Positions 4,375-61,185 of a DNA stretch of 64,000 bases are shown one piece after another. This stretch comes from Octopus vulgaris (lineage: Eukaryota): assembly GCA_951406725.2 (NCBI GenBank), contig OX597821.1:27156001-27220000 (forward strand), read 5' to 3'. Every line of letters starts with the position of its first letter. Position 1 is the stretch's first letter. The position numbers were made by a program, and so were the translations under genes. The notes beneath the pieces were generated by a model that was not told the DNA's origin, searched no databases, and saw only the letters and a list, made by a program, of their open reading frames with translations.

Positions 4375-5685
4375 CTTTCCTTTCCAAATGCATTAGATTC
4401 GTAATTGGCATCCAATGACAGCTTGAAAATATATAACTACAGGATATCAATTTGATATCCTCATTAAAATGAATACCCTCAAAACACCATAGCTAACCAC
4501 CTTTGTATAAAAAAAAAAAATATTATTTTCTCCATTTATTTATTATGACGTAGAAAAGTGTTGCTCATATCACTTTCAAGAAGATTAACTCTATACGTGC
4601 CTTTATGTAGGTAAAAATGAAACCTAACATCCTCGTCCCCTTATATCTTTTAACAGATCACAATCTCTTCAAATTTTTAAGGGTTTCATTTGATTCAGTA
4701 TAAAATATTCTCTATAGAATTTACCTCATTAATCTATTTATTGGTCTTTGGAAAACAAACCAGAGACAAATGAGCCAAACAAAGTAGTAGTTGAGTCTGT
4801 TGGAGAGTGTCCTAGCTGCGTCTATGTGGTCATGACACTATATAGCATATCTACACCAATTTACACGCTAATGCCTTAAAATATATAGTGTTCAGTAAGT
4901 AATATTCTTCTAAGTACGCAAGCTGAATAAACTCAAATGGGGGGTTGCGCCTTCTATTGTATTTCCTCATGATCGTCGCTAACCTGCAACTGAATAACGT
5001 AACAATAACACAGAAAAAAGCTTACAAAATAGAGACTTTTCATACGCCGATGCACACTTTATATGCCAGATAACAAATCACTGTATATTGAAGTGTGAAG
5101 TGCAGGCTTCAACTAAAGGGTAGCGAAGCATATCTGGGACACTGGATCCGTGCATTATGATTTACCATTCAGTTAGCTTCATATAAATAAATACGAACAA
5201 CATTACATAATATATATATATATATATATATATATATATATATATATATATATATATATATATATATGTTGTGTCTGAGGAGAGTAATTTTCCTTTTTGT
5301 GCCTTATAATTTAACACATTCACCGGTAAAATTTCCACTTATTTCTTATTTTTATTTTCCGTAAATTTTCGTTGCGTCTTGCAACCTTTTCAATAGTCTT
5401 GACTCTGTCCGATATTTACACTGCTTTCCTTTTTGTTTGTTTGTGCTCATGATTGTGGGTTAGTGTGTGTGTTTGTGTGCTTATGCATGCATTCATGTAC
5501 GCATTTATATATATATGTATGTATGTATGTATGTATGTATGTATGTATGTATGTATGTATGTATGTATGTATGTATGTATGCATGTGTGGGTATGTATAT
5601 ATTTGTGTGTATGCATATATACATATGTATATATGTATGTATGTATGTGTGTGCATCTGTATGTATGTATTCTGCATAGTCATGT

Positions 5686-5907
5686 AGGAACATTGCGGAA
5701 CGACTAAATGAACATCTGAGATAATATGACGACAAAAAACAGTTTTCCATAATCTACCAACAGGCCAAAGACCCCCATGGAGGCAACATGGGTCAACTTG
5801 ACATCCGCATCTTATCCAAGCACCCAAAAGACCCAACACTCAGACAAATACAAGAGTACGTCCTTATAAATGAAACCTCTCCAATACTAAATAGGAAAGA
5901 TACATAG
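5686..5907 (+). pseudogene. PLE GIY-YIG endonuclease C-terminal remnant (not in the ORF track)
   Basis: Manual translation RNIAERLNEHLR*YDDKKQFSIIYQQAKDPHGGNMGQLDIRILSKHPKDPTLRQIQEYVLINETSPILNRKDT* matches the PLE pattern ER..EH...H..HGG...RQI.E...LN.K. Confidence 0.75.
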
Positions 5908-6651
5908 TAGATATCATATCTCCATACTTCCAGTTTACACTGGTAGAGTAGAATTGTTAGTGAACTCTTATGCAGATAGAGGTATGTATGTATGTATGTA
6001 TGTATGTATGTATGTATGTATGTATGTATGTATGTTTGTATGTGTGGGTGTGAGTGTGTGTATATACACGTGTAATTTTTTTGTTTGCATGTAAGCATAG
6101 GGATATGAAAATAAACAGATCAACATACAGACGGACATGTACATAGGTTATAAAAACAGAGAAGCACATATACGCAAATGGAGACTGAAACACATGACCT
6201 TATACATACACACACACACACTTTACTCCACACAAGGACACATATGGAGACACGGGTCTACACATATAGTGATGCACAACCATACATACAAATATGGCAC
6301 ATAGTTGCAAAACACATACACACACAGAAGGAGACAGAAGAGCATACAAATACAAACACACGTTCACACTCCCCTTCCCCCCCACACACACAGGAAATAC
6401 ACAAAAACGGACATGCAAGCACATGAATATGCAGAATACATACATATATACATAAGCATACACACATGTATATAAAACACTCACATGCATACATACATAC
6501 ATACATACATACATACATACATACATACATACATACATACACATATACATACATACGTACATGCCTGCATAGGCACACACACATACTGACCCACACACAT
6601 GCGCACAAGCAAACAAAAAGGAACGCAGTGTAAATATCGGACAGAGTCAAG

Positions 6652-6690
6652 CTTATTGAAAAGGTGGCAAGACGCAACGAAAATTTTAGG
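6652..6690 (+). ncRNA. Hammerhead-ribozyme-like motif, U3-A8 variant
   Basis: CUUA-UUGAAAA-G-GUGGC(AAGAC)GCAAC-GAA-AAUU-U-UAGG. Other copies at 5359-5397(-) and 54165-54199(+) have a perfect GUUGC/GCAAC helix II. Confidence 0.6.
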
Positions 6691-7769
6691 AAAATAAAAA
6701 TAAGAAAGAAAGTGGAAATTTTACCGGTGAGTGTGTTAGATTATAAGGCAAAAAAAGAGAATGACACAACCGAATATGCTTCAACACATGAACCCATATA
6801 AAGAATCTTGCAAACCAAATCCAAAAACGAAACACACACACATATAGATTCATACATAAATACATATATATATGACCGTATGTATATATGTGAGGCTAAT
6901 ATGTCTGTGTGTGTATGTCTGTATGCCTGTGTGCGTTCATGCGCAAACACTTGTGTTTAGCAGTTGATTAGTGCTTGTGCTTGCGGTATGTTCACGTGTG
7001 TATGATTGTGTGTGTGTCCATGACCCTATACTGTACCTGTGTATCGTTCAAATATATAGTTCAAATTTTTCAGAAAATAAAAGACGAAGACAGATGAAGG
7101 AACAAGCATGTATATTAGTTTAATGCTCGGGAAGAATGAAAATTTCTGCGACAGAAAGGATTAAGAGGAAAAAAACAATCGCAAAAAGAACACCATCCCC
7201 TCCAAAAAACAAACAACGGAAGGAGTACGACAGGAAACAACGAGAAAGTATGTGTAGTGATTAGAGATTCAAATTGATGAAATGGCCAAAAGGAAAAAGC
7301 TGGATGAAAGGGAGATAATAACTTAGGCACAAAAGCTCACTTTAGTGTGTCTGTGTGAATGGGGCAGGTGCTTGAGTGTGTATGTGTGTTCGAGCTTAAA
7401 ATTATGTGGGCCTGTGTGTGTGTTTATGTATAAGTAACCTACTGCGTACATTTTGTTGAGCAGTGTACTGGTGTGATTTTGTGTGTGCATATGGAGGTGT
7501 GTACATATGCGTGGGGTAATCATGTGTGTGCCTAAACGAACGGGCCTAAGAATATGGAATACAAACAGGAGGATGCAATACAACAACAACAAACATGAGA
7601 AACGGAAAGGCAAAGCATGGAACGTGTAAAGAGAATATGAATACAAAGATATAAGCAAAATGTTCAACTCGATTAGGTAAAGTTCGAAGGAATACTTTGC
7701 TTTGAAGGACAAAACTGCGTCGCTGGTGATACGTGTTGAAAAGTCTTTGGTAAGTTTACAAATAGTTCA

Positions 7770-58959: not shown

Positions 58960-59525
58960 GGAAGCGCAATGGCACAGTTGTTAGGCTAGCGGACTCGCAG
59001 TTGTAGGATCGCGGTTTCGATTCCCAGACCGGGCATTGTGAGTGTATATTGAGCGAAAACACCTAAAGCTCCGCGAAGCTCCGGCAGGGGATGGTGGCGA
59101 ACCCTGCTGTACTCTTTCACCACAACTTTCTTTCACTCTATCTTCCTTTTTCTGTTGTACCTGAGCTGGCAGAAACGCTAGCACGCTGGGCGAAATGCGT
59201 GGCCGTATTTCGTCTGCCGCTACGTTCTGAGTTCAAATTCCGCCGAGGTCGACTTTGCCTTTCATCCTTTCGGGGTCGATAAATTAAGTACCAGTTACGC
59301 ACTGGGGTCAATGTAATCGACTCAATTCGTTTGCCCGTCCTTTTTTGTCCCCTCTGTGTGTAGCCCCTTGTGGGTAATAACGAAACATATATTTCAAAGG
59401 ACCAATCTTGTCACATTCTGTGTCACTTAGAATCTCCTCCGAGAACTACGTGTCTGTGGAGTGCTCAGCCACTTGCACGTTAATTTCACGAGCAGGAAGT
59501 TCCGTTGATCGGATCAACTGGAACC
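58960..59525 (+). mobile_element. SINE with family C head and a different tail, interrupted by a family B SINE at 59164-59385
   Basis: 58960-59140 matches 9910-10090. After the insert the sequence continues with a tail unlike 10100-10208. Confidence 0.8.
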
Positions 59526-60202
59526 TTTCATGTTGCGTATAAAAATGAAGAACACCAGTAGCTCTAATATTTTGCGTCGGGAAACCTATCAAAAATGATA
59601 TAAAAACCTCAGTCATACTCAGAATACTGATGAAATGCCGAGCGTTTCGATCTATTTTAGCCTCCTCAATGACGAGTGCCTGTAACCTTCTGAACCAAGC
59701 TAAAAATTATTCTTCTCGTAGGGAAATCCATAAACAAGCCATTTACTGAAGTCTGTGAATGCAAGCCAGGCAAGAATTCAATTAGTGTACGCTCTTGAAG
59801 CAACATTAGATAAAAATACACGTGCATATAGCATGCATACAAATGTAAAACAGCACAGGCTATAATTTTTTCTTGCTGGCACCGATCCTATGAAAAACTA
59901 AAGCAATAAAAACTCACAAGATTTCAAAGAGTAATATCTAGGGAAACTTCAACATGTTCATTATGGACACCATAAAGTCAATTTTGCCTTCTACTACAGT
60001 CATTTAAATTGCATATAAATATATTCTCTCATTCGAAAAATTAACGTGTATGTATGAATCTTGTTTGAAGCTTACAAATACCTAGAAACGTAGAATTCTG
60101 TGTTTCTTTCTGTACATTTTCACACCCACACCCTCACAAACGCTCACACACACACGTACACACATGTATATGCATATGTATATATTCGTCTCTAATATGT
60201 GT

Positions 60203-60611
60203 AGGCGCAGGAGTGGTTGTGCAGTAAGCAGCTTGCTTACCAACCACATGCACGTCGTATATATATATATATATATATATGTATGTATATATATTCTCTC
60301 TTTTACTCTTTTACTTGTTTCGGTCATTTGACTGTGGCCATGCTAGAGCACCAGGACTTATTCATTGTAAGCCTAGTACTTATTCTATCAGTCTCTCTTG
60401 CCGAACCGCTCGGTTACGAGGACATAAACACAACAGCATCGATTGTCAAGCGATGTTGGGGTACAAACGCAGACACACAAACATATACACACACGCACAT
60501 ATGTGTGTATATATATATATATTATATGCATATATATACATATATACGACGGGCTTCTTTCAGTTTCCTTCTACCAAATCCATTCACAAGGCTTTGGTCT
60601 GCCCGAGGCTA
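60203..60611. mobile_element. SINE family A pieces: plus-strand head and minus-strand body/tail
   Basis: 60203-60250 matches 312-357. 60295-60611 is the reverse complement of about 407-716. Confidence 0.8.
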
Positions 60612-60909
60612 TATATATATATATATATATATATATATATATATAATTAGTAAGTGTAAATACCAGCTTTTTATTTCAAGCACATCTGCTTGTTCCAATA
60701 TTATTATTAGAATTGAATGTGCAGTGTTAGTTGGTGTTGCAAGTTGAGATAAGTCTTAAATTTGAGAATTTTGGAAATATTATTTACAGATATATTTCTA
60801 TCATTTAGTAACCATTACAGGTGTTTCGTTTCATAATAGGAATTACAAAGTTTTACATTTTACATAGATATGTTAAGAATTTCCTATTGAACTAACTATA
60901 TATATATAT

Positions 60910-61185
60910 ACCGGAGTAAGCACATAAATGTGAAATAAGGTGGAAAAAAGAGTACTCAGATACCAGGGGTAGAGTAATATATTTATTTAAAAGCAGTAGA
61001 AATATAACGAAAGCTCTTACTCAGAGTGTCACGTTCCCGTACGTCGGACTGTTTTGTTAAAATAGAACAGAAATAACGCTCGTTTCGAGCCTTTGCTCTT
61101 CAACAGAAAGGAATACGAGGAAATAAACACGAGAAAATGAATAAAAAACTTGTGGATTTAGCGGTCAATAATGGCGACTGATCGT
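60910..61185 (-). mobile_element. Two adjacent PLE-type fragments, each with an eroded hammerhead-like motif
   Basis: 61014-61052(-): CCGACGU-ACG(GGAA)CGU-GAC-ACUCUGAGU-A. 61081-61110(-): CUUU-CUGUUGA-A-GAGC(AAAG)GCUC-GAAACG. Confidence 0.55.

Follow-up and report, generated by a model that had tools for sequence, protein, structure and literature searches.

Hammerhead-like motifs with exchanged core pairs in the terminal repeats of octopus Penelope-like elements

The stretch of Octopus vulgaris DNA analyzed here (G000:C8:27156001-27220000, 64,000 nucleotides, referred to as the window) lies in a 2.8-Gb genome, has a G+C content of 35% with many microsatellites, and contains 13 copies of a hammerhead-like motif at the ends of Penelope-like elements (PLEs). 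The repeat families that carry the motif are named here by core as U, G, C, A, H/H2 and K. In families U and G, U3-A8 and G3-C8 are the majority states of the core pair between positions 3 and 8 in the whole family. The motifs in the PLE terminal repeats are minimal type I hammerhead motifs.

Motif copies and their elements

Family U contributes four cores to the window (5393, 6656, 54152 and 54165). The 3' part of a family U element (5659..6832, +) consists of a broken GIY-YIG remnant (5659-5898) and a microsatellite-rich 3' region with a U3-A8 core at 6656, whose H17 is at 6686 and whose helix II has one mismatch. Beside it, an inverted and 5'-truncated copy of the family U end (5267..5666, -) has a U3-A8 core at 5393, H17 at 5363 and a broken first helix I pair. 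Two further family U ends form a head-to-head pair on both strands (54015..54229), with a decayed core at 54152 (-) and a core at 54165 (+) in which the 5' strand of helix I has been replaced. Family K is represented by the 3' part of an element (54533..56155, -) with a GIY-YIG remnant at 55930-56154 and a canonical core at 54804, which has a long helix II, an 8-nt palindromic helix III and H17 at about 54727; an inverted truncated piece from the GIY-YIG region of this family K element follows at 56189..56540 (+). The first-pass annotation, an earlier reading of the window, had placed the motif downstream of both endonuclease remnants, 5659-5898 (+) and 55930-56154 (-), and in the same sense, which proved correct. 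An inverted 5'-truncated copy beside an element, with microsatellite flanks, was found at 5267-6832, 54015-54229 and 54533-56540, and head-to-head truncated copies are common, including many G and C loci genome-wide.

The single family G end (50244..50431, +) is 5'-truncated 3 nt before its G3-C8 core at 50247, with H17 at 50283 and the first helix I pair broken. Family C has a young end (37369..37710, +) with a short inverted piece (37369-37432) and an intact motif, whose core at 37500 is C3-G8 with C9 and whose H17 is at 37533. The family A end (27889..28111, +) is old (~75% identity) and has a canonical core at 27941 in a copy without CGAAA. Five ends belong to H and H2. Among the family H ends, that at 20980..21200 (+) has a C3-G8 core with U6 at 21050, H17 at 21077 and a helix I reduced to 2 pairs, and that at 25003..25228 (+) has a U6 core at 25084 with a broken helix III palindrome; the cores at 36664 (36518..36734, -) and 44386 (44379..44530, +) are decayed, the latter copy having also lost CGAAA. 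The family H2 fragment (61081..61180, -) has a U6 core at 61106 and ends inside helix III after GAAACG. Every core cited in the first-pass annotation does sit where it had been placed, and the copies at 54152 (-), 21050, 25084, 36664 (-) and 44386 are further to those.

A strict descriptor accepted only 1 of the 13 window copies (37500), the other 12 being decayed, but the family majorities follow the claimed layout. In the first family consensus sequences (30 loci per family, in samples biased toward the window copy), helix I, the core, helix II, GAA, a near-palindromic helix III and H17 were all intact. The helix III palindrome, also part of the earlier description, is perfect in U, G, H and K and near-palindromic in C and A, and is broken in the copy at 25084 mentioned above; its length is 4, 6 or 8 nt depending on the family, and its sequence differs as well. 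An extra nucleotide (G or A) lies between positions 9 and 10.1 in U, G, C, A and H and is absent from K, and the G10.1-C11.1 pair is present in 13 of 13 aligned rows. H17 lies ~90-175 nt from the element end, near the 75-150 nt that had been proposed for the motif. The CUGANGA/GAAA/UH core of the minimal PLE hammerhead, or its U3-A8 variant, is found in K and A (canonical) and in U (U3-A8), and G (G3-C8), H/H2 (U6) and C (C9) are variants that depart from it.

That a relaxed pattern met these sequences by chance in AT-rich repeats is in our view very improbable, although several results taken by themselves could suggest it. Besides the failure of 12 of the 13 window copies under the strict descriptor, no Rfam hammerhead family matched at the gathering score in 11 loci, which included a tandem unit with a canonical core, and no hammerhead was among the best 150 Rfam matches listed for the window, beyond which there were 162 weaker ones. 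Folding z-scores were weak except for family G. However, this strict descriptor, which required helices I-III and left positions 3, 6, 8 and 9 free, found 15 matches in the window plus 20 arbitrary 10-kb genome stretches (200 kb), compared with 0-4 (mean 1.45) in each of 20 dinucleotide shuffles, an excess that agrees with the earlier expectation. Positions 3 and 8 were complementary in 13 of the 15 real matches and in 7 of 29 shuffled ones; 10 of these 13 are tandem copies of two units, and all 13 derive from five distinct units. Moreover, the intact majorities in seven family samples, the compensatory helix changes and the fixed place in PLE terminal repeats speak against chance, and the family majorities together with the intact family C element described below refute it. 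The failure of Rfam at the gathering score is also in line with the earlier statement that a CUGANGA search would miss such variants. A PDB sequence search gave no match.

Canonical-core motifs were also encountered in other repeats. A 10-kb stretch (L211:2307-4560, G000:C1:20000001-20010000) holds tandem units of ~355 nt, each with a canonical-core hammerhead, giving 7 motifs on both strands, and looks like a retrozyme array of the kind without long terminal repeats (non-LTR). Repeated units of ~535 nt at L230:2122-2830 and L071:553-1175 have a canonical core, and in them helix II is long and helix III is a palindrome of 8 nt; the L012, L013, L017, L157, L200, L214 and L034 flanks contain more canonical-core motifs with a long helix II and a palindromic helix III, mostly once each. 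In 930 kb, all other motif types had C-G at 3-8, save three noise-like singletons and single decayed copies.

The connection with PLEs was examined through the proteins encoded next to the motif. An intact family C element (L348:813-4748, -) has a 1,312-codon frame with an asparagine-rich insert and a C9 motif on either side. In this single open reading frame (ORF), motifs read by eye, which we take to be those of a reverse transcriptase (RT), precede a C-terminal GIY-YIG endonuclease. The whole family C protein matched no Pfam family, its fragments gave RVT_1 and GIY-YIG matches below the Pfam cut-off, and GIY-YIG scored above the cut-off in G and K fragments. Family C copies are ~99% identical, which suggests that the family may have been active recently. 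An endonuclease remnant or ORF lies upstream of the motif in the same sense in U, A and H2. For family G, six loci were found in both the upstream and the endonuclease searches, on the same strand and ~1-1.5 kb apart, and two fetched loci contain both parts. Two G copies lying 3.6 kb from each other on the same strand were considered as a full element and rejected as a local duplication. No ORF lay between the members of one of two family C pairs, and none was linked to the motif in the 30 loci of the main family H sample. The motif is present at both element ends in family C and at the 3' end in U, G, A, K and H2. In addition, C, U and G proteins contain a CxxxxCxxC-type, Zn-finger-like linker between RT and endonuclease, a feature of the Neptune or Nematis clade (PMC8557442; this and the other papers are cited here for the parts of their text that our comparison covered).

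Other repeats in the window are broken RT fragments of a non-LTR element of the long interspersed nuclear element (LINE) type at 28541-30092, an almost perfect inverted repeat of 120 bp around a 3-nt spacer at 18449-18691, and a repeat of 400 nt that has short terminal inverted repeats and resembles a miniature inverted-repeat transposable element, with three copies (42748-43159, 45765-46201 and 58067-58461). The G insertion at 50244 sits within another LINE-like remnant, distinct from that at 28541-30092.

Core states across the genome

Because the 30-locus samples lean to the window copy, core states were counted with genome-wide patterns that left the core positions under test free, with the reversed pattern as control. 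The counts are of exact matches and hence lower bounds, and core states were tallied from the first 100 matches listed. These patterns gave 2,257 to 9,936 matches per family and their reversed controls none. With positions 3 and 8 free, family U had 2,257 matches, and its first 100 were U-A (91), C·A (6), U·G (1), U·C (1) and C-G (1). Family G had 5,197 matches, with G-C in 96 of the first 100. When 28 G copies were picked by upstream sequence alone, 23 had G-C, two G·U, one U·C and one A-U, one was disrupted, and the majority had a helix I of 7 pairs. An older relative of family G emerged from another pattern with 34 matches, in which G-C was the commonest state (16), followed by G·G (4), G·U, A·C and U-A (3 each), A-U and C·C (2 each) and U·C (1). 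Contigs of four public sequencing runs with four organism labels showed no variant of at least 10% at G3 or C8.

Changes outside the 3-8 pair are likewise fixed in large families. Family C had 3,351 matches, with C9 in 96 and A9 in 3 of the first 100, and family H had 9,936, with U6 in 94, C3 in 97, G8 in 99 and any of the four bases at position 7. A constant A at positions 6 and 9, as the first-pass annotation had it, is thus contradicted. In total, ~20,000 exact matches in four families of one genome escape a CUGANGA search.

Further states of the 3-8 pair were considered and rejected. A3-U8 as a fourth state had 16 matches versus 5 in the control, most being G or older-G copies with two transitions; two of the matches are one decayed U-type copy in a duplicated segment, with mostly U3-A8 relatives. 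This segment is present three times on C28 (L283, L284 and L301) at 90-95% identity. A C3-G8 subfamily inside family U is unsupported (5 of 2,257 matches, ~3 expected by chance), and neither C3-G8 nor C3·C8 intermediates form a subfamily in family G (2 and 23 matches, respectively).

Kinship, covariation and intermediates

The families had been presented as dissimilar, but they cannot count as independent. Homology links U, G, C and A, whose endonuclease regions have best-pair amino-acid identities of 40-61%, and their motifs align directly with one another. In a tree of 32 rows, U groups with G at 99/98 support, with an unsettled bootstrap. In an alignment of 13 related and hand-chosen copies, the 3-8 column reads GC in six, CG in three, UA in two and UG in two, and in two pairs of helix II both partners change; compensatory changes are present in helices I and II. 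Because the rows are related, a shuffle count on this alignment does not give a probability. The 3-8 covariation is real, but because U, G, C and A are relatives it is narrower than first claimed and comes down to two events in one lineage.

The complementarity of positions 3 and 8 stands for the U3-A8 and G3-C8 family majorities, but not throughout, since subfamilies with U3·G8 and G3·G8 have multiplied. U3·G8 has 36 matches, 18 of which share a loop variant found in 2 of 91 U-A rows (p 4e-10). Among old copies, three sites outside the motif distinguish 25 with G8 (20 U3, 4 C3 and 1 A3) from 12 with A8 (p 0.0006-0.005). In these biased samples, divergence from the own majority is 9.3% in the G8 group, 7.9% in old U-A copies and 2.5% in the main family, and old U-A copies are intermediate at the diagnostic sites. 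The sequences point to a history in which C3-G8 was ancestral, followed by a U3·G8 wobble subfamily and then by U3-A8, and in which the sister lineage reached G3-C8 along an unobserved route.

G3·G8 has 188 matches genome-wide, and 27 of the first 100 listed lie within 11 Mb of contig C16, 25 of them sharing one loop variant. This core has multiplied by separate insertions, because the six copies fetched have different flanks (6/6). The region at G000:C16:1.3-10.7 Mb (L341-L346) represents a local burst of family G insertions with the G3·G8 core; at L342 the direct copy has G8 and its inverted partner C8. As both the U3·G8 and the G3·G8 subfamilies have multiplied, the 3-8 pair is not strictly needed for spread.

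Cleavage and comparison with known systems

From the position of the motifs, their structure and their core states we infer, with moderate confidence, that they cut the element RNA, probably as pairs and with the aid of the PLE protein, and that a swapped 3-8 pair keeps the site usable. A transcript through a tandem PLE would hold two hammerhead motifs, whose palindromic helix III strands could pair mutually to form two junctions, and cutting after H17 would trim the PLE RNA, likely aided by the PLE protein. A change of base 8, and with it a swap at 3-8, is likely tolerated because the chemistry falls to the 2'-hydroxyl of this nucleotide, which the 3-8 pair holds in place; in G8 this group has been proposed as the general acid (PMC6155905). 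In the Anolis Poseidon PLE hammerhead, engineered C3G/G8C partly rescues activity, and cleavage needs the PLE protein (PMC11167929). Minimal PLE hammerhead dimers cleave weakly (PMC4209133).

Several points weigh against cleavage of this kind. The covariation rests on two swap events, and families U and G were chosen for the covariation test since the swap had already been noticed in them. The root of the tree is unreliable, its outgroups being too distant, and the age ladder is built on a small gap and on biased samples. The U3·G8 and G3·G8 subfamilies have spread, and the uncompensated U6 of family H and C9 of the young family C, with its intact element, are fixed; in other hammerheads a change at position 6 (A6C) lowers activity (PMC3088659, PMC7151607). 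In four of five families tested, the dimer is not favoured over two monomers by nearest-neighbour energies. Furthermore, the Anolis PLE inserts in vitro without need of cleavage, and no RNA-seq ends were found at the site (PMC11167929).

The main alternative is that the motifs are PLE-derived hammerheads whose cleavage has lapsed or become marginal, the core changes (U6, C9, G3·G8, U3·G8 and perhaps both swaps) having been fixed because each family grows from a few master copies, and the helices kept as a signal for binding or positioning of the PLE protein. This would accommodate the mismatched and wobble subfamilies as well as U6 in ~10,000 and C9 in ~3,350 exact matches. It is also in keeping with reports that catalytic mutants left insertion in vitro unaffected (PMC11167929) and that Naiad PLEs thrive without canonical hammerheads (PMC8557442). 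However, the two large families without C3 have each arrived at a Watson-Crick pair, for which one of them needed two transversions from C-G, and U4, G5, G12-A14, A15.1-U16.1 and G10.1-C11.1 are fixed across families of 40-61% protein identity while position 7 and the loops drift. On balance, lapsed cleavage seems to us unlikely, though a serious competitor, and cleavage is likely under genuine but loose selection. A bolder version of the cleavage reading is that one PLE lineage records a stepwise rewiring of the 3-8 pair (C-G, U·G and U-A, with G-C in the sister branch) and that natural ribozymes with G3-C8, U6 or C9 all work in vivo, the PLE protein or the dimer making up for core changes that disable free hammerheads. 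We offer this only tentatively, as it is probably too strong. If true, core-based searches would greatly underestimate both the variety and the number of catalytically active hammerheads in animal genomes.

It is also conceivable that the motifs cleave as monomers that the PLE protein keeps in shape, in which case the palindrome of helix III would be a relic or serve another use. The lack of favourable dimer energies fits such monomers, as do the requirement of the Anolis PLE hammerhead for the protein (PMC11167929) and the minimum-energy monomer folds of families G and U, which already contain helices I and II. In contrast, helix III stays palindromic or nearly so while its length and sequence change among families, and 4-6 nt are too few to close a normal stem III hairpin. 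We regard monomer cleavage as improbable and retain cleavage as protein-aided pairs.

Dimer-cleaving PLE hammerhead variants with a diminished stem III were reportedly described by Lunse in 2017; the octopus motifs resemble those variants in the diminished stem III, the PLE association and, putatively, the cleavage as dimers. Our literature comparison also included PMC6765202, PMC6466107 and bioRxiv 10.64898/2026.07.22.740005. Cervera and de la Pena (2014; PMC4209133) described the type I layout, a palindromic helix III and ~1,300 U3-A8 motifs in Schistosoma PLEs. The metazoan PLE hammerheads of that work and the octopus families have in common a short helix I, the extra nucleotide between 9 and 10.1, the G10.1-C11.1 pair, a location in the two terminal repeats, a predominance of solitary truncated copies and the U3-A8 variant, and the octopus helix III of 4-8 nt is nearer to its Drosophila, rotifer and mosquito forms. 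The suggestion that the window holds natural non-canonical variants holds good in that U3-A8 and G3-C8 are fixed in families, but that work had already published U3-A8, the additional nucleotide and the palindrome in helix III. In contrast, G3-C8, U6 and C9 fixed in large families, as well as U3·G8 and G3·G8 subfamilies, are absent from its text as covered here. Perreault et al. (2011; PMC3088659) reported natural U3-A8 covariation and a natural A6C with low activity in magnesium; the variants of that study and of PMC7151607 are rare and mostly microbial or phage, and their covered text mentions none of G3-C8, A6U and A9C. More generally, no natural G3-C8, A6U or A9C was found in the covered text of the literature, whose figures and supplements, or the Lunse 2017 alignments, could hold one. 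The Anolis Poseidon PLE (PMC11167929) likewise has a terminal-repeat hammerhead, but G3-C8 was engineered there, whereas here it is the majority state of a family with more than 5,000 exact matches. Taken together, K, A and U belong to the ordinary or previously described PLE hammerheads, and G3-C8, U6 and C9 with their wobble or mismatched relatives appear to be the new part. The octopus families offer, in nature and at high copy number, core changes familiar chiefly from laboratory mutants (G3-C8) or absent from the literature covered here (A6U and A9C). Their wobble and mismatched relatives serve as built-in controls, so that the need for hammerhead cleavage in the spread of PLEs can be put to the test.

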